Shown here in pieces: positions 2,702 through 33,503 of a stretch of 64,000 nucleotides of DNA. The stretch is from positions 128,001 through 192,000 of the forward strand of contig CAXXTH010000022.1 of NCBI GenBank assembly GCA_963668025.2, given 5' to 3'. The stretch is from Candidatus Hydrogenedentota bacterium. GTDB taxonomy: Bacteria > Hydrogenedentota > Hydrogenedentia > Hydrogenedentales > SLHB01. Every line of letters starts with the position of its first letter. Position 1 is the stretch's first letter. The position numbers and the translations under genes were made by a program. The notes below the pieces were generated by a model. It did no database searches. It had not been told where the DNA came from and worked only from the letters and a program-made list of their open reading frames with translations.

Positions 2702-3751
2702 ATGAACAAAAGCAAGGGAACATACCGGTTTTCGTTTGGACCCTGGAATGTAGACGAAGGCGCTGATCCGTTCGGCCCAACCGTACGCAATCCTATTCCT
2801 TTCGCGGAAAAATTGACGCAATACAAGAAACTGGGATTCGACGGTGTCCAGTTTCATGATGACGACGCCGTACCCGATATTGACAGCAAATCCCACGCTG
2901 AGATTGAAAAAGAGGCGAAGCAAGTCCGGCAGATGCTTGATAACGAAGGCTTGGTAGCGGAATTTGTTGCGCCCCGCATGTGGTTTGCCAAAGAGACTAT
3001 TGATGGCGGTTATTCCAATAATGACCCCGCATGCCGCAAATACGCCATTGAGCGCTCCAAAACCTGCATCGATATCGCTAATATTTTGGGCACGAACCGC
3101 ATTGTGCTCTGGCTGGCGCGCGAAGGCACCTATATCCGGGAAAGCAAAAACGCCCGGGCGGCCATATTGCAGATTCTCGATGCCATCAACGCCATGCTGT
3201 CACATGACTCCAATGCCCGGATTCTAATCGAACCTAAGCCTAATGAACCCGTAGACAGTGGCCTCATTCCGACCATCGGCCATGCGATCGGCCTTGCCTA
3301 CGCCAGCATCGATCCTTCCCGGGTCGGCGGCCTCATCGAGAGCGCCCACTCGATTCTGGCGGGGCTGGATCCATCCGACGATATGGCCTATGCCTTGACC
3401 CACGATAAACTGTGGAGCGTCCACCTCAATGATCAAGGCGGCCTCAAGTTTGATCAAGACAAGTCATTCGGCTCGTTCAATCTGCGCCGCGCCTTCAACC
3501 AAGTGCGCGTGTTGGAAGAATATGGTTATGGCAATAAGGGCGAGTTTGTCGGCCTGGATGTTAAAGCCATGCGGACTCAGAAGCTGGAAGTCTCCTATAA
3601 GCACCTTGCCAATAGCAGGCAAACTTTCCTTTACCTGCTCGAAAAAGTGGTCACGCTTGACCATGCACTGGAACAAAAGCTTATCCAAGAGCGTGATTAC
3701 GAGGAACTTGACCGCTATATACTCTGCCACTTGATGGGAACCAAGTATTAG
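2702..3751 (+). CDS. Xylose isomerase-like (class I XylA-type) TIM-barrel sugar isomerase
   Basis: GADPFG, FHDDD, WLAREG, EPKPNEP, HLNDQ, DQD metal-binding motifs. Confidence 0.85.
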   Translation: MNKSKGTYRFSFGPWNVDEGADPFGPTVRNPIPFAEKLTQYKKLGFDGVQFHDDDAVPDIDSKSHAEIEKEAKQVRQMLDNEGLVAEFVAPRMWFAKETIDGGYSNNDPACRKYAIERSKTCIDIANILGTNRIVLWLAREGTYIRESKNARAAILQILDAINAMLSHDSNARILIEPKPNEPVDSGLIPTIGHAIGLAYASIDPSRVGGLIESAHSILAGLDPSDDMAYALTHDKLWSVHLNDQGGLKFDQDKSFGSFNLRRAFNQVRVLEEYGYGNKGEFVGLDVKAMRTQKLEVSYKHLANSRQTFLYLLEKVVTLDHALEQKLIQERDYEELDRYILCHLMGTKY

Positions 3752-20368: not shown

Positions 20369-21130
20369 TTACACTTCGATATCGGCCACGGAATCCAATA
20401 TTTGTGTAGGCTGGTACGGGTATTTTGTCACATCCTCCCGCCGCGTGACGCCCGTTAGCACGAGAATCGTTTCCATGCCGGTTTGCACGCCCGCGATGAC
20501 ATCCGTATCCATGCGGTCGCCGACCATCACCGTGTGTTCCGAATGGACGCCGAGGTAATTGAGCCCCGTCCGCATCATCAAGGGATTCGGTTTGCCGATA
20601 AAGAAGGGCATGCGCCCCGTGGCGCTCTCGATTAATGCGGCCAATGCGCCGCAAGCGGGCACAATGCCGCCATCGCCGGGTCCATTGGAATCGGGATTCG
20701 TGGCAATGAACCGTGCGCCGCTGGCCACCAACCGGCATGCCTTGGTCAGCGTTTCGATGTTATATGCCAGCGGCTCGCCGAGTACGACATAATCGGGTTC
20801 ATGGTCTGTAATGATATATCCTGCTTCATGGATGGCCGAGGTCAGCCCGCTTTCACCGATGACAAACGCAGTGCCCCGGTTTTTCTGAGCTCCTAAAAAA
20901 CGGGCTGTCGCCATTGCTGATGTAAAGATATGCTCGGCGGGAATATCGAGTCCGATGATATGCAGCCGATGGGAAAGGTCGCCGGGCGTATAGATGGGGT
21001 TATTGGTCAACACGAGGAACTTCGCCTCATGCTCGCGTAAGCGTGCGATGAACTCGGCCGCACCGGGGATAGCTTCTTGCCCACGGATCAGAACTCCGTC
21101 CATGTCGATCATGTAATTCTTTTGTGCCAT
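20369..21130 (-). CDS. nagD: HAD-IIA phosphatase, NagD-like
   Basis: DMDGVL, LTNN, GKP, GDRMDTD. Confidence 0.85.
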
Positions 21131-21213
21131 ATATCTCCCGCCATGTGGTTTCATTTGCCTGTTTGCGCTGGTTCGCCGGGGCAGGGTACCACACCGGCCC
21201 TGGCGGAGACACC

Positions 21214-22704
21214 TTACGGACGTTCAGGAGCCGGGAAAAACTCCGCCCCCGCCAGCGTCGCGGGGAACCGGTCATCCTTGCGCACCAATTCCATGTGCCC
21301 ATCCAGATATAGAACCAGCCGCGTCTGAGCCTGCGGGCCTTCGGGCCCGGTCTTGGTTGAATCGAACAGCAATGGGATTTCGGAAATATACCTGGGGTTT
21401 GCGACGGGATCATTGATATCCGTGATTAAAAAGCGCGCCACGCCTTCGGCCAGCGGAAGTGGGGACGCCCCTCCCGGCAAAGCCGCGCCAGAAGGCTGTT
21501 GTCCTTCATCGATAGCGCGCTGGCGCGCCGCCATGGCAGCCTCCGTGGCGTCACGGACCACCCAGCGTGGGTAGGTGTAGCTGGCGGCGGCGGCGCGGGC
21601 GGCGGTCTCGTAGTCCGGCTCGGGTTTGTCCAGGGCGTCGCGCAAGGTATCCAGCAACGCGTCCGCATCGGGCAACCGGGGATCCACCAATAGCGACAAA
21701 TCCTCTATATAATCCGGATACAGCCCGCGCAGATCGAACATCCAAACGCCGCCAGGCGCGAGGGGTGGATAGTCGCCGCCGTGGTTCTTCGCATACATCT
21801 GCAACGCGATGCCCAACCGCTCCAGATTGTCTAAGGCATCGCCGCGCCGGGCCGCCTCGCGGGAGCGGGCCAGGATGGGCAGCAACACGGCGGCAAGGGC
21901 GAAAATGACGACAATGGCCACCGCCACTTGATAGAAAGGCGCGTGAAGCCAAGGCTGGGCATATTGGCGGTTTTGCTCCTCGGCTGCGACGCGCTGCATG
22001 GCTTGGCCTGTAAGGCCCTCGGGCATGGGCGCGGCAAAAGATGCATCCAAAGCGTGGAGCGCGTTCCGTTCTTCTTCGACGATACGCCGCAAAGCTTCTG
22101 ATTCCGCTAACCGAGTTTCGTATTGCATGCGCGCGCTAGGTTCAAGCATGCCAAGCACATAACGGCGGGCCAATAAGCAGTTGTTCTTCTGGGCTGGCTT
22201 CACATCGGACTCACGCGTCAAAGACTCATAAGCCTTGAGCATTCGACGCTTTACAGCAGTTACAGAAGCGCCGGTGAGCCATGCCGCTTCACCATATTCA
22301 AGGCCCGCGCAACGGATAAGGGCGAAGGCAGCCCGGTATTTGGTTGGGAGCGCCTGCAAAAGGCCTGCGTCATCTGAAGCGGGCTTCATATCTTGCCTTG
22401 TCCACGCATGGCGCGTGGCGCATTGCGCCAATGCCGTGCGGTAGAGCCATGGACGCGCCCGCATGCCTTGCTTGAAGCGCCCCAAGCTTTGGTGGGCCGC
22501 GATGGCGGTTTGCGTGAATACCTGTTCCGCCTCCGCAGGGCTTTCCGATAAGGCGTACAAAAAGGCATATAAGGAAGGCGCGTGCCGCTGCAGGAATGTC
22601 TCAAAAGCGCTTAATTGTCCTTGATGCGCCGCGCCGATAAGGGCTTCATCCGAAAGGCGTGACAAAATGAGCTCATCGCCTTTTTCCGCGTGTATATCAG
22701 TCAT
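21214..22704 (-). CDS. ECF sigma-like / anti-sigma-like / TM / pilin-like (DUF1559, H-X9-DG-type) fusion protein
   Basis: SDEAL..AF..PWLYR (sigma2), LP..YRAAF..GLEYGE..VKRRM (sigma4), YVLGML..E.RL (anti-sigma domain), [42 protein letters not shown]. Confidence 0.75.
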
Positions 22705-22879
22705 GCCATATACGCTCCAGGAAGGCGCTTCAATGGAAGGCCGGATTATCAATACTATTCAACCTGGCGCCATTATACCGCCGGAAGCGATAGAGATAAA
22801 CTTAATCGCCGCTTTAATGTCCTGCCTATCATGTGGTATGACTTCCCCCAGGTTTCAGCGGTAGAACGGAGGTAACAAT

Positions 22880-24259
22880 ATGCGTATCACATCTTATGGC
22901 GCGGCGGAAAACGTCACAGGAAGCAAACATCTGCTTGAAGTCAATGGGTACCGCATCTTATTCGATTGCGGCATGTTCCAAGGCAAGCGCGAAGAATCCT
23001 CCATGCGGAACAAGGCTTTGCCATTTCCCGTGGACAGCCTCCACGCCGTGGTGTTAAGCCATGCCCACATCGATCATAGCGGCATTCTGCCCGTTCTGGC
23101 GCGTTATGGCTACAAGGGCCGTGTGTTCACCACCCCGGCCACGCGCGATTTGTGCGCCATCATGCTCCTCGATAGTTCGCACATTCAGGAACGTGATGCG
23201 CGCTGGCTCTCGAAAAAGCACCAGACTTTCGTGCCGCCCATCTATACGGATGAAGATGTCCGCGAGATCATGCGCCATTTCATCAGCATACCCTACGACA
23301 TCGTCATGGAGGTTGCGCCTGGCGTCTGCATCACCTTCAAAGACGCTGGCCACGTCCTCGGTTCGGCCATGGTCCTGGTCGAATTTACGGAAAACGGCAA
23401 GCGCCGCACACTGATTTATAGTGGCGACATTGGCCGGAAAAACATGCCTATCTTGAAAGACCCCTGGGAGCCAGATCATGCCGATGTCGTGATAATGGAG
23501 AGCACCTACGGCAACCGGGATCATGATCCCATCGAGACGCTAGACAACGAACTGGCCGATGTCGTGAACCGAACCTATAACCGGGGCGGGAAAATCGTGG
23601 TGCCCACGTTCGCCCTCGAACGCGCCCAAGAGTTCATATTCGCCCTTAAACGGCTCGAAATGCAGAAGCGCATTCCCCTCATGCCGGTCTATGTGGATAG
23701 CCCGCTGACCGTGAACATCACGGAAGTGTTCCGCCTGCACGCGGACCTTTTCGATGAGGAAATTCGCAAAGTTATGGAGGAATCGGGCGATCCCTTCGAG
23801 TTGCACAACATTGACTACATTCGCAACCTAGAACAGTCCATGGAGTTGAATTCACTTACCAAGCCCGCCATCATCCTCTCGGCGTCGGGCATGTGCGAAT
23901 ATGGCCGTATCTTGCACCATCTGCGCCATAACATCGAAGATGAGCGCAACACCATCCTTATCATCGGATTCCAGGCCAGGAACACCCTCGGACGGCGCAT
24001 CGTCGAGCGCGAACGCGAAGTCCGCATTTTCGGCATCAAACACCGGTTGGATGCCGAAGTGAAAGTGCTCAACTCCTTGAGCGCCCATGCGGGCCGTTCC
24101 GAGCTTCTTGACTTCGGCTCCCGATTCAAGAACAGCGCCGAGCGCATCCTGTTGGTGCATGGTGAGCAGGAGGCCCTGGACGCCTTATCTTCCGGACTCG
24201 CCGAAAGAGGCTGCAACAACGTGGCTATCCAAGAAGAAGCCGTAACCGTCGAGTTATAA
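22880..24259 (+). CDS. MBL-fold beta-CASP ribonuclease
   Basis: SHAHIDH, AGHVLGS, SGDIG, MESTYG, SASGM, SAHA. Confidence 0.92.
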   Translation: MRITSYGAAENVTGSKHLLEVNGYRILFDCGMFQGKREESSMRNKALPFPVDSLHAVVLSHAHIDHSGILPVLARYGYKGRVFTTPATRDLCAIMLLDSSHIQERDARWLSKKHQTFVPPIYTDEDVREIMRHFISIPYDIVMEVAPGVCITFKDAGHVLGSAMVLVEFTENGKRRTLIYSGDIGRKNMPILKDPWEPDHADVVIMESTYGNRDHDPIETLDNELADVVNRTYNRGGKIVVPTFALERAQEFIFALKRLEMQKRIPLMPVYVDSPLTVNITEVFRLHADLFDEEIRKVMEESGDPFELHNIDYIRNLEQSMELNSLTKPAIILSASGMCEYGRILHHLRHNIEDERNTILIIGFQARNTLGRRIVEREREVRIFGIKHRLDAEVKVLNSLSAHAGRSELLDFGSRFKNSAERILLVHGEQEALDALSSGLAERGCNNVAIQEEAVTVEL

Positions 24260-25988: not shown

Positions 25989-26522
25989 ATGGACCCGGTG
26001 TTGACAGATGCGGAACTGGTGAAGGCTGTCCTTGCGGGAAAAGGAGCGGCGTACGGAGACCTTATCAGGCGGTACGAACGATCAGTCCGTGCTGCGACTC
26101 TTGCGGTATTGGGCGACTTCCACGCCGCGGAGGACGCCACTCAAGAAACGTTTGTCGTTGCGTACCGGAAGCTCGATGCCCTGCTGCGGCCTTCCGCCTT
26201 CGGCGCTTGGGTATTGCGAATCGCACACCGCCAAGCGTTGCGGGCTGTCCGGAAACACCGGGCAGCCGAAACGCTCGATCCGAATGTGGCTGTTCAGGCG
26301 CCTCATAACGGACGGCTGGATGAGGATTCGGAAGGCCTTCTCACCGCCGTGGCCGCGCTGCCAGAGCACGAACGGCGTGTTGTCATGTTGCATTACTTCG
26401 ATGGGCACAGTGTGGCCGTCATCTCGGCGATGTGTGGCCGGCCTCTTGGTACGGTGACGAAACAACTCGCGCGCGCCCGCGAACGATTGCGGGGCAGGCT
26501 CTGTAAGGAGGCGAAACCATGA
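25989..26522 (+). CDS. ECF sigma-70 factor
   Basis: AEDATQETF, FGAWVLRIA, LP..R..LHYF.G, GTVTKQLARAR. Confidence 0.92.
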   Translation: MDPVLTDAELVKAVLAGKGAAYGDLIRRYERSVRAATLAVLGDFHAAEDATQETFVVAYRKLDALLRPSAFGAWVLRIAHRQALRAVRKHRAAETLDPNVAVQAPHNGRLDEDSEGLLTAVAALPEHERRVVMLHYFDGHSVAVISAMCGRPLGTVTKQLARARERLRGRLCKEAKP

Positions 26523-27410
26523 CAACCAAAGACACGCTTGAGCAGCGGCTTGCACGCCTTGGACGCACCCTTGCAGACGAGGTTTCCGTCGCCGATACGG
26601 TCATGAAGCGTATAACGGAATGCACCCCCCCTGGCGCGAGGCGTTCGAACCGGCGTCCCATGTGGCTGTTCAAGCCTGCGCTGATCCTGGGTTCGCTTGT
26701 GGCGGCGGCGCTAGTCTACGAGTTCGCGAAGTTTGCCGGTCTCGTGAGTATTACCGGCCGCGCATGGGCTGCGGCGGAGGCCACACCCGACCCACATAAA
26801 ATGATAATTTCGATCGCCGCAGTTTTAGTGCTGGCCGTGTTTTTTTTGGTGATGTTTGTCAACATTCCCACCGCGCTGTGGCGGCGCACGCACACAAGAC
26901 GATACCCATTACTCTGGATTGCTGGTGTCGGCGGCGCTATCGCCTTCCTGATGGGTTCTGTGGCGTGGCAGTGGAACACCGCGCCCTGTCCCGTGGGAAT
27001 CGATGAGACCCTCGAAGTGAGAGGCGGCAACAGCCCGTTGGTTATTCTTGGGATACGGATGGAGCCACCCGCGGGGGATAGCGGCACTATCGAATTGGAT
27101 GTCCGTAACGACGGTCCTACACAGCAATTTTTGGCGTTTGCATACTATGCGAAATGGCGGCACATTCTTGGGAGGGTTCTTCCACCCTGGTGCCAGCGGC
27201 GGCGGAAAGGTCAAGCGCGTGCCTCCCCATTGGTCAGGCACTATCGAGTTTGACCTTCGCTTTCCCCCACGGTTTGGATACAGCGGCAGGATAGAGATCC
27301 AGATAGGCGGCGCTGTGGTGTCACAAGAACAGGATTTTATAGTGGGGTTGCCGCCTGAGTTTGAAATCTTGTACAAGAAGCGGTTTGTTCTAGTTCCAGA
27401 AGGCGGATGA
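26519..27410 (+). CDS. Putative membrane anti-sigma factor, frameshifted near 27153
   Basis: ATGA overlap with the sigma gene; three TM segments; removing one A from GCGAAATGGC joins 26519-27253 to the tail of the 27048-27410 frame. Confidence 0.55.
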
Positions 27411-31335: not shown

Positions 31336-32376
31336 ATGGGTGAAGAAAAAAAGAAGCGTGGATTGCGATGGCTGGAATTCGGAGCGGTAATTGTATTCAT
31401 AATAGTACTTTTCATAGTTGGGCTGCCTGCCTTTAGTAAGTTCAGTGAATATAGCAGCCGTTCGTCGTGCCAGAACAATCTCAAGCAATGGGGCGCGATT
31501 TTCGACATATACGCCAATGAAAACCAAGGACTGTTTCCTCCCCCTATCCGTCATCAAATACTAGGCCAGCGCATGCTGCGCGGATTCGCGGCGGAAACGC
31601 TCTATCCCAATTATTGGACTCGGCTGGATTACGCCATTTGCCCTTCTTCTTCCCGTGGAAAAAGCTACCTAGAACCTCCGATTGATGCGCTTGCGACCGA
31701 TGGTGCGGGCGAAGTATGCCGTTCGGCGCTATTATCGCGGCCCATTTCCTATGTGTATTCGGCATACGCCGCCACTACCACGCCAGATTTCGCAGAATGT
31801 ACACTATTACACGCGGAACAACAGAAACAGCTTTGGGACGCGGAGCCGCAGTCTTACAGGATCTGGCGCGCGGGCGAATTGGCGGCGGCAGGATGTCTTG
31901 CCTGGAAACGCAAGGAAACTGCATCTCCGCCCTATGAAAGCGAGGGGGTGACATATGGCCCCTACGAGCCAGAAACGCTGGAAGGCCAGAGTTCGAAGTA
32001 TGAACAATTGTCCAGCGAATCCACTTTGCGCAAGTCCTATCCGCGCATGCGCAAAGGCGTAGAACGTTTCTTCCTCACGGATATCAACAATCCAACTCTT
32101 AAAGAACTAAGCGCCAGCGCCATCGGCGTGATGTGGGATGTCTGGGGCGAACCAGACATAGGCCTGCCGAATCTGCCCGGAATAGCTTCTCCGATGGTGA
32201 TGATTTTTAATCATGTGCCGGGCGGCTCAAATGTGCTTTATATGGATGGCCATGTGGCGTATGTCAAGTTTCAAGAGGGATATCCACTGCTGGAAGATCG
32301 CGAAATGACGCAGAACGCGGACTTGATCGATATTATCAGCCAAACGGTGATGCCGGACGTATTCATGATGCATTGA
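31336..32376 (+). CDS. Prepilin-like DUF1559 / H-X9-DG domain protein
   Basis: KKKRG|LRWLE class III-like leader, SCQNNLKQWG, ERFFLTDINNP, NHVPGGSNVLYMDGH. Confidence 0.85.
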   Translation: MGEEKKKRGLRWLEFGAVIVFIIVLFIVGLPAFSKFSEYSSRSSCQNNLKQWGAIFDIYANENQGLFPPPIRHQILGQRMLRGFAAETLYPNYWTRLDYAICPSSSRGKSYLEPPIDALATDGAGEVCRSALLSRPISYVYSAYAATTTPDFAECTLLHAEQQKQLWDAEPQSYRIWRAGELAAAGCLAWKRKETASPPYESEGVTYGPYEPETLEGQSSKYEQLSSESTLRKSYPRMRKGVERFFLTDINNPTLKELSASAIGVMWDVWGEPDIGLPNLPGIASPMVMIFNHVPGGSNVLYMDGHVAYVKFQEGYPLLEDREMTQNADLIDIISQTVMPDVFMMH

Positions 32377-32423
32377 TGCCCTATTTTACACGATGCAACT
32401 CAACCTATAGGAGTGTAGGAACC

Positions 32424-33503
32424 ATGAAGATGTTACGCATCAACCGCATCGAATTCGCTGTGCTGCTCACCATCGTCGTTGCATTTGCATTGTTGTTGAC
32501 GCCTGCGGCGCGCATGGCGCTGGCGCAGGACACGAAGAGCGCCTGCCAAAACAACCTTAAACAATGGGGCATCGTCTGCAAGATGTACGCCAATGAAAAT
32601 AAAGGCAGCCTATACCCCCCTCCCATGCGCTACCACGTACTTGGCCGGAGACTGCCCCGCGGATTCGCGGCGGAAGCGCTGTACCCTGAATACTGGACTG
32701 ACATCAGTATCGCCATCTGTCCCGCCGATCCTCGTATAGACAGCCCATTGGCGGATCAAAAGACAGGCGTGCAACAAGATTTTATTGGGCAAACCCAGGC
32801 TATCACGGCGAGAGGCACGGATGAATCAAGCAAGAAAGTTTGCCTGAATACATTATTATCTCAACCTATTTCGTATGTCTATTCCGGTTACGCTACTACT
32901 AGCATGCCAGAATTCACCGACGCTACACTAAGCCACGCGGAAGCGCTCAAAGCTGAATGGGATGCAAATCCTGATTCTTATCAATCTTGGACGGCGGCGG
33001 AGATGATCGCTGCAGGCTGTCCCAATTGGCGTTCAATCAGACGCGGGGCTGCATATGAGTTAGAAGGCGTCATCTATGCAAAAAATGACATCAAGCAACT
33101 GAAGCCAGGAACCTTCAGCAATCAATTACGGCCCGAAAACAAAGAAGCGGAAGAACGCGGATGGACTTTGCCGGAGTACCTCATGTTGTCGGAAGGCGTC
33201 GAGCGCTTTATGATCACGGATATTAATAATCCCGCTGCAAGCGCAATGGCGCAAAGCAGCATAGGGCTGATGTGGGATGCGTGGGGCCCTCAAATGGATA
33301 TCCCGTTGAACGCCCCGGCGGACACGGAAGTAAAAAACATGCGCTTCCACCACACGCCTGGCGCATGCAATGTGTTATTCATGGATGGGCATGTTGAATT
33401 TGTCAAATTCAGTGAAAAATACCCATGCACGGCGGCGCTGGATGATGGCACAGTCAGCCCCTTGATACTGGCCGTCATGGAACGGGCTGGCGGGCAAGGG
33501 TAA
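32424..33503 (+). CDS. DUF1559 / H-X9-DG domain protein, tandem paralogue
   Basis: ACQNNLKQWG, ERFMITDINNP, HHTPGACNVLFMDGH. Confidence 0.85.
   Translation: MKMLRINRIEFAVLLTIVVAFALLLTPAARMALAQDTKSACQNNLKQWGIVCKMYANENKGSLYPPPMRYHVLGRRLPRGFAAEALYPEYWTDISIAICPADPRIDSPLADQKTGVQQDFIGQTQAITARGTDESSKKVCLNTLLSQPISYVYSGYATTSMPEFTDATLSHAEALKAEWDANPDSYQSWTAAEMIAAGCPNWRSIRRGAAYELEGVIYAKNDIKQLKPGTFSNQLRPENKEAEERGWTLPEYLMLSEGVERFMITDINNPAASAMAQSSIGLMWDAWGPQMDIPLNAPADTEVKNMRFHHTPGACNVLFMDGHVEFVKFSEKYPCTAALDDGTVSPLILAVMERAGGQG

Follow-up and report, generated by a model that had tools for sequence, protein, structure and literature searches.

A one-chain sigma/anti-sigma protein with a DUF1559 pilin-like domain in a Candidatus Hydrogenedentota bacterium, a rare fused form of a two-gene module

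Can a sigma factor be carried on one polypeptide with the anti-sigma segment that would hold it and with a pilin-like outer domain, and where would such a protein come from? The question is raised by a gene on the minus strand of a stretch of 64,000 nucleotides (the window) from a Candidatus Hydrogenedentota bacterium (contig CAXXTH010000022.1, positions 128,001 to 192,000). An earlier note on the window had described the gene as encoding one polypeptide with the parts of a sigma factor of the extracytoplasmic function (ECF) type, an anti-sigma-like segment, a pilin-type helix and a DUF1559 outer domain. This was borne out by a single open reading frame of 496 codons and by its domain matches. 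The gene is a rare fused form of a two-gene design that is older and common in the phylum. We lean slightly towards the reading that its product is a membrane-tethered, self-inhibited sigma/anti-sigma hybrid with a pilin-derived sensor, which came from the two-gene module and would be freed by proteolysis. The gene and its parts are located in the window as follows.

21214..22704, minus strand: whole gene, 496 codons and a TAA stop (ATG at 22702-22704, TAA at 21214-21216)
22405..22674, minus strand: diverged sigma domain 2, residues ~11-100; Pfam Sigma70_r2, predicted local distance difference test (pLDDT) >90, motifs altered against 25 partner sigma factors
22210..22362, minus strand: sigma domain 4, residues ~115-165; Pfam Sigma70_r4_2, alignments and VIA matches to sigma region 4 structures
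22200..22203, minus strand: GTGA, relic of a gene overlap; read from the sequence and from 23 of 26 two-gene relatives that overlap at the same point
21946..22197, minus strand: anti-sigma-like helical segment without HxxxCxxC, residues ~170-253; NF052375 below cut-off, four helices with pLDDT >90
21784..21939, minus strand: single helix of 52 residues (256-307), membrane span and pilin alpha-1-like; structure prediction and register against prepilin-type DUF1559 proteins
21217..21783, minus strand: DUF1559-type outer domain, residues 308-496, without the Cys and His of the free H-X9-DG proteins; pLDDT mostly >90 with a deep alignment

The ATG at 22704 is supported as the start because the closest fused relatives likewise begin with MT, and the exact 496-residue protein is already on record in NCBI/ENA, on a contig of 213,790 bases. 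All strings quoted by the earlier note, LDGH included, were found in the translation, and GATGTGAAG in the DNA. The scan with hidden Markov models that the note had proposed gave a divided answer. Sigma70_r2 matched residues 38-96 with 29.4 bits (cut-off 24) and Sigma70_r4_2 residues 115-161 with 34.9 bits (cut-off 25.7), whereas zf-HC2 (PF13490) had no match at E<=1 and DUF1559/SBP_bac_10 (PF07596) stayed below its threshold, at residues 282-314 with 18.7 bits against 23.3, a match to the first 33 residues of the domain only. The NCBIfam profile 'antisigma' NF052375 matched residues 178-276 with an E value of 6.5e-10, yet with 39 bits against a cut-off of 100, and TIGR04294 (H-X9-DG) was not among the best 25 of 58 NCBIfam matches. 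That the C-terminal two thirds are homologous to DUF1559 proteins was clear from a word-indexed protein collection (E 1e-12 to 1e-54), where 0 of 12 matches covered the sigma part, and about 100 DUF1559-type matches to the protein were listed in its own genome. Five proteins of the collection, P0003-P0007 (318-351 residues, 35-39% identical), consist of an anti-sigma-like segment and DUF1559, and three of them, P0004, P0005 and P0007, carry PF13490. The corresponding segment of the window protein is therefore a homologue with a lost zinc site; RLAESEAL stands at the position of HxxxCxxC, in agreement with the absence of zinc ligands that had been noticed before. The protein unites a sigma part, an anti-sigma segment, a membrane-spanning helix and an outer domain and so has the architecture of the IutY-type hybrids.

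The single frame was compared with contigs of other sequencing runs. The GTG of GATGTGAAG is the start of a 281-residue database protein, P0002, whose sequence equals residues 176-456 of the window protein. It comes from a contig of 2,677 bases in run X3 that agrees with the window over 21360-22211 only and beyond 22211 has the sequence of another contig of the window's genome (G000:C23:384535). The join reads GACT/ACTC, as expected of two filled-in HinfI ends, and 7 of the 8 contig ends of run X3 in this stretch fall in HinfI (GANTC) or MseI (TTAA) sites. Proximity-ligation libraries are made by such filling-in and joining of restriction ends. Because the contig departs at 22211 into a distant contig at a HinfI-type join, P0002 is a ligation chimera and no evidence of a split gene. 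Run X3 behaves like a proximity-ligation library, and gene calls on such contigs, P0002 among them, are chimeras. The contig ends of this run in the window lie at 21360, 22211, 22225, 22610-22613 and 22804 and are joined to distant parts of the same genome.

The junction between the sigma part and the anti-sigma part was crossed with 0 differences by record 2 of run X1 (21395-22900) and by record 7 of run X2 (21650-22900). These are contigs, not raw reads, from two runs of one sample, made with an assembler differing from that of the window. At the contig level the single frame over the junction region thus holds, and an indel error within ~25 bases of the junction is unlikely. In run X4 a relative from a wastewater sample, roughly 90-95% alike, was covered by contigs over 21350-22004 only; a rough count, with two contigs mixed, gave 24 changed codons (13 synonymous and 11 non-synonymous). 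Of the 8 sequencing runs found, none was listed as RNA.

The origin of the gene became apparent from its relatives. Matches were found in 20 of 41 genomes of relatives at E<=1e-20 and in 46 of 135 genomes of the phylum at E<=1e-25, the window's genome (G000) being included in both counts. Among 31 loci of relatives, an ECF sigma gene in its own frame immediately precedes the anti-sigma gene in 26 cases, whereas 3 loci are fused and 2 run into a contig end. A 4-base overlap, ATGA or GTGA, joins the end of the sigma gene to the start of the anti-sigma gene in 23 of the 26 two-gene loci; the other three show TGATG, an 8-base overlap and a 37-base gap (with a start chosen by us). The GTGA at the junction, to which the earlier note had pointed, can thus be recognised as a relic of the two-gene overlap, in which GTG, once the anti-sigma start, now codes for Val176, and the TGA that ended the sigma gene is no longer in frame. 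In the alignment the window sigma part ends four residues before the sigma factors of the relatives, and the linker joining its two domains lacks ~35 to 50 residues compared with theirs. Since the GTGA is kept and the sigma part is now in frame and four residues shorter, the window gene arose by fusion of the usual pair through a frame change just before the overlap. Comparison with the two-gene loci shows that the stop within the 4-base overlap was lost when the frame shifted at the 3' end of the sigma gene.

The search for this architecture in related genomes, also proposed by the note, returned further fused forms, the common form being the two-gene one (26 of 31 loci). The notion that a pilin-like domain was co-opted in the window protein had to be given up, as the anti-sigma/DUF1559 combination is already the common two-gene form of the phylum (the 46 genomes above); the window gene is later than this design. 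The two-gene modules (L012-L042, L047-L060) are homologous to the window protein over the whole length and have the same order of parts, with 24-34% identity in the sigma part and 31-38% in the anti-sigma/DUF1559 part. They differ from it in having two genes with a 4-base overlap, well-conserved sigma motifs, a promoter TGAACC-N16-CGTA for themselves and, in 16 loci, a second such promoter after the anti-sigma gene. A normal pair is absent from the window's genome, where one place only matches residues 176-258; the best match to a partner sigma factor lies elsewhere in that genome and is 43% identical.

Eight genomes of genus g39 in family f5 also have a one-frame fused form (L022, L040, L041, L048-L052), in L052 cut by a contig end. 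Because the normal two-gene pair stands in this genus as well, at 8 loci (L047, L053-L058, L060), the fused form is a paralogue there. For the two closest fused pairs, the ratio of non-synonymous to synonymous substitution rates (dN/dS) was 0.19-0.20 in sigma domain 2, 0.13-0.20 in sigma domain 4, 0.10-0.18 in the anti-sigma part, 0.03 in the helix and 0.08-0.10 in the outer domain. As judged from these ratios, the fused paralogue is under purifying selection.

A search of 1.84 billion representatives with a profile built from 8 fused proteins gave 326 proteins at E<=1e-30. The best 150 matches were examined and contained four further one-chain forms (P0014, P0015, P0062, P0048), P0002 from the cluster of the window protein and many anti-sigma proteins of the two-gene type with ~310-340 residues. 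P0048 and P0062 have normal-looking sigma motifs and therefore fusions arose more than once. P0048 looks recent, since its sigma part is normal up to KSRMN and is then followed by an odd joint. A separate observation concerns P0018 (1239 residues), P0019 (1462 residues), P0027 and P0028, which are tandem arrays of the outer domain because each has 5 to 8 separate stretches that match it.

In a tree of the sigma parts the window protein groups with the g39 fused clade, on long branches, with a value of 98 in the Shimodaira-Hasegawa-like approximate likelihood ratio test; in a tree of the anti-sigma/DUF1559 parts it stands apart from this clade. A single fused clade was not rejected by the approximately unbiased test (p 0.55), and the constrained tree was 2.5 log units better. 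By eye, the window and g39 fused proteins have in common the derived states LY.L for (L/I)RRM, RTA for RIA, KAY/EAY for KAV, DNLE/ENLE for QNNLKQ and Q at helix position 5.

The structure was predicted with AlphaFold2 in two runs, one with the fused and sigma rows (33 sequences) and one with the fused and anti-sigma rows (107 sequences). In the first run the pLDDT was >90 over residues 11-250 and the C-terminal part was poor; in the second the mean pLDDT was 91.3. The model consists of the two sigma domains, four helices at 170-249, a 52-residue helix at 256-307 and a mixed alpha/beta domain. A joint alignment of fused, sigma-only and anti-sigma-only rows was dropped, as sigma domain 4 was misplaced in 25 of 25 sigma rows. 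The best VIA match was SigW of the SigW/RsiW complex (5wuq; Z score 14.9, root-mean-square deviation (rmsd) 3.6 over 150 residues), and CnrH of CnrH/CnrY (4cxf) was matched with a Z score of 14.7 and an rmsd of 2.7 over 141 residues; both matches extend over the two sigma domains. The sigma fold, without which the idea of the earlier note would have failed, is thus predicted.

Foldseek gave template modelling (TM) scores of 0.78-0.80 to anti-sigma-bound sigma chains, whereas sigma factors within RNA polymerase complexes had an rmsd of about 27 to the model. Because the best matches are anti-sigma-bound and the RNA polymerase-bound sigma factors fit poorly, the predicted sigma part is of a compact, inhibited type. 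SigW/RsiW of Bacillus subtilis and CnrH/CnrY, whose sigma chains fit best, are pairs of two proteins, of which RsiW binds zinc; the window protein differs from them in being a single chain and in having no HxxxCxxC ligands. When the full model was used, fold searches returned sigma matches only, since these fill the lists and mask the outer domain.

The membrane helix had been described as a pilin alpha-1 helix, and its register against prepilin-type DUF1559 proteins as well as the single predicted helix at 256-307 speak for this. With the DUF1559/H-X9-DG prepilin-type proteins (PF07596, TIGR04294) the window protein shares the alpha-1 helix, LLPxLxRxREAARR, YPxY, ERFxITDIN and LYLDGH; it differs in the absence of the leader, the Cys and the His and in a 255-residue cytoplasmic part before the helix. 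The cleavage positions of prepilins are altered in its helix, with H at -1, A at +1 and Q at +5, and so, with the conserved His replaced as well, it lacks the marks of a prepilin-type H-X9-DG protein. The earlier note had recorded that the zinc ligands, the SCQNN Cys and the H-X9-DG His are absent from this gene, but the anti-sigma-linked subfamily as a whole shows these losses. Of 47 anti-sigma parts, 17 retain HxxxCxxC; the Cys is kept in 10 of 90 two-gene members and the His before DG in 17 of 90, and both Cys and His are missing from all 11 fused proteins and present in 6 of 6 prepilin-type proteins. Of 38 two-gene anti-sigma factors compared at the prepilin positions, 6 carry G at -1 and 6 carry E at +5. 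Seven of the eight g39 fused proteins carry Q at +5. All eight have the -1 G and an F at +1, reading W-G-F-R-F-M at the cleavage position, and this site may still be cut by prepilin peptidase.

The relatives have an ECF-type promoter in common. With the strict pattern TGAACC-N16-CGTA(T), 47 sites were found in 46 loci, all on the gene strand. Thirty-one of them lie just upstream of the sigma gene (23 in the first locus set and 8 of 8 in f5) and 16 right after the anti-sigma gene. The latter (TGAACCTT..CGTA) belong to L013, L015, L017, L024, L030, L032, L033, L035, L037, L038, L039, L042, L057, L058, L059 and L061. The gene that follows this second promoter encodes, in 7 loci, a conserved exported protein without a Pfam match, which starts with IPDLPSA..W(S/N)DF, and in 4 loci a leaderless DUF1559 protein. 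Judged by their promoters, the genes behind it are likely the regulon of the normal sigma factor.

Near the start of the g39 fused genes, TGAACC-N16-CGTA was absent in 7 of the 7 whose upstream DNA was examined. The window as a whole has 2 loose matches to the family motif, where 1.13 are expected, none of them near the gene or near 31336, and a consensus scan of 21000-23000 for sigma-70-type promoters found 0 sites. One hexamer upstream of the gene was spotted by eye.

22772..22777, minus strand: TATAAT, a weak candidate

The window's genome has a homologue of the exported protein, 37% identical and unlinked from sigma genes, in L062 (G000:C10:1135403-1139731, at ~2980-2990, minus strand); its gene lies at G000:C10:1136903-1138231. 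TTGAACC stands ~87 bases upstream of its ATG, and TGTC replaces CGTA 16 bases further on. This box may be a relic, or it may be a promoter for a sigma factor with a changed -10 reading. A terminator-like stem with a T run lies within the last 20 codons of the window gene (21246-21266, minus strand); 4 such sites were found against 1.9 expected, so that it may be due to chance.

How could the fused protein work? In the ancestor an ECF sigma gene was followed by the gene of an anti-sigma factor with a DUF1559 pilin-derived membrane helix and periplasmic domain, and removal of the overlap stop by the frame change produced the single chain. According to the predicted structure and our inference from it, sigma domains 2 and 4 in the cytoplasmic N-terminal half would be closed on their own anti-sigma helices, and the long helix would span the membrane and run on into the outer domain as its pilin-type alpha-1 helix. 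The anti-sigma segment would keep the sigma part inactive at the membrane, until a signal at the pilin-like outer domain or at the helix led to proteolysis and freed the sigma part, as in IutY. The genome encodes an RseP-type site-2 protease (Peptidase_M50, PF02163, over cut-off) and a prepilin peptidase (PF01478, 69.6 bits). Because the sigma part has diverged, its self-promoter is lost and the normal pair is absent from the genome, a released sigma factor would probably read promoters unlike those of its ancestors.

The IutY protein of Pseudomonas putida, a hybrid of group ECF243, is activated by proteolysis through Prc and RseP, and sigma/anti-sigma hybrids have been predicted in the groups ECF48, ECF52 (SCO4117), ECF53 and ECF36 (PMC8999054). 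They resemble the window protein in joining an ECF sigma factor to an anti-sigma-like segment, with a membrane span and an outer sensor in the same chain (PMC8999054). The window protein differs from them in the families of its sigma and anti-sigma parts, in the strong divergence of the sigma part and in the loss of the self-promoter; its membrane helix and outer domain are pilin-derived (DUF1559), whereas those of the hybrids are FecR-like or carbohydrate-binding.

Several results weigh against the tethered switch. The end branch of the window sigma part is 1.79 long against a median of 0.31 for the partner sigma factors, about six times as much. Compared with 25 partner sigma factors, the motifs of regions 2.2, 2.4 and 4.2 are changed: RIATNxCRD has become RTALAQCAT, and the partner motifs AEDLFQETFLRVY and IPVGTVKSRMNKAV are replaced. 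The degeneration of sigma domain 2 seen by the earlier note is thereby confirmed in the alignment, though Sigma70_r2 is still over its cut-off; TIGR02937 (sigma70-ECF), with 33.5 bits, is under its cut-off of 42.9. No match to TGAACC-N16-CGTA was found upstream of the window gene in a regular-expression search, and the whole genome had 18 hits to the family promoter compared with 41 for a reversed control, which is no enrichment. That the anti-sigma helices would touch the sigma domains we read from the compact shape of the predicted sigma part. Support for the junction is limited to contigs of one sample, maybe the source sample of the genome itself, and run X3 leaves 22212-22224 uncovered. 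We read this gap as a 15-base HinfI fragment lost in a ligation-type library, with no bearing on the junction. In view of the altered motifs, binding of core RNA polymerase and promoter-specific initiation are putative roles of the window protein, to which no promoter could be assigned.

The main rival to the tethered switch is that the sigma part is non-functional as a sigma factor and serves as a folded partner of the anti-sigma helices in a protein that does something else at the membrane, such as acting as a scaffold or decoying the pilin-handling machinery. We give this a substantial but clearly smaller likelihood. It would account for the altered motifs of regions 2.2, 2.4 and 4.2 in both fused lineages, for the long sigma branches, for a self-promoter lost from both the window gene and the seven g39 genes and for the lack of promoter enrichment in the genome. 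In g39, moreover, the fused copy is free to change function because the normal pair is kept beside it. It fits less well with the low dN/dS of the sigma parts in the two closest fused pairs (0.13-0.20), with the confidently predicted sigma fold and with the retention of W86, the LYR stretch and the basic recognition helix in the window protein. The window's genome also has no normal pair, yet its gene for the exported protein keeps the TGAACC box at the usual distance. Far less credible is an artefact or fresh damage, in which an indel of sequencing or assembly or a very recent frameshift joined two normal genes without biological meaning. The 4-base overlap makes such fusions easy, the recent-looking P0048 exists among the representatives and P0002 starts at the GTG; but P0002 comes from the chimeric contig, the junction is intact in the contigs of runs X1 and X2, the sigma part has diverged much further than a fresh event would allow and all 496 codons are open.

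Prepilin peptidase might be the enzyme that releases the sigma/anti-sigma part, by cutting the pilin-like helix at its cytoplasmic face. The G at -1 and F at +1 of all eight g39 fused proteins (of 38 two-gene anti-sigma factors, 6 have this G) and the PF01478 peptidase of the genome would agree with this. Prepilin peptidase needs a glycine at the cleavage site, so the window protein, with H at -1 and A at +1, should escape the cut, and a cut there would leave the anti-sigma helices joined to the sigma part. We hold this route to be improbable, if a little less so than the artefact. A wider idea, speculative but somewhat less remote, is that the fused proteins are pilin mimics that read the pilin-handling machinery: the peptidase or the assembly platform of the pilus or secretion system would act on the helix and free the sigma part by cutting or extracting it, which would couple either the assembly of pseudopili or the size of the pilin pool in the membrane to transcription. 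If this is true, the Gly-Phe of g39 (8 of 8) would be a working cleavage site and the window variant would have moved to another protease. A precedent for the sensing of pilins is PilS-PilA of Pseudomonas aeruginosa, where the pilin pool of the inner membrane is sensed by direct contact of membrane segments (PMC6058289). PilS is a histidine kinase and not a sigma/anti-sigma system, and the likeness to the window protein is limited to this precedent (PMC6058289).

Two neighbouring loci had been connected with the gene or touch on it. The tandem H-X9-DG proteins at 31336-32376 and 32373-33503, both on the plus strand, pass TIGR04294 and are without a normal prepilin leader. The earlier note had linked them to the window protein by shared motifs, but they are only distant paralogues and no close partners: the protein at 32373 was found with E values of 5e-5 and 1e-4, and that at 31336 was not among the 100 matches listed. 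The 32373-33503 protein resembles the leaderless DUF1559 protein of L035, which stands behind an ECF promoter (32% identical, E 2e-20), and upstream of 31336 the search for the family ECF promoter found none. An ordinary ECF sigma gene on the plus strand (25989-26522) overlaps by 4 bases with the gene of a 244-residue membrane protein without a Pfam match (26519-27253), and this is probably another sigma/anti-sigma pair.

In the library searched, no paper combines 'DUF1559' and 'anti-sigma'. DUF1559 is likewise missing from the main text of the 2021 ECF classification, whose supplements, with their anti-sigma factors listed for each group, may bear on the matter. Sigma/anti-sigma hybrids are already known, and an anti-sigma factor built on a DUF1559 pilin-like protein is apparently undescribed in print.

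DUF1559 proteins are very abundant in planctomycete-like bacteria, and to our knowledge no function is known for them. A sigma switch with a sensor built from DUF1559 would provide a regulatory handle on this family, since in the relatives the switch likely drives a neighbouring leaderless DUF1559 gene or the conserved exported protein. The fused form shows with what ease an overlapping sigma/anti-sigma pair can be turned into a one-protein device. In conclusion, it would offer a natural case of a sigma factor that is tied to its own inhibitor, with fast divergence and the loss of self-regulation.

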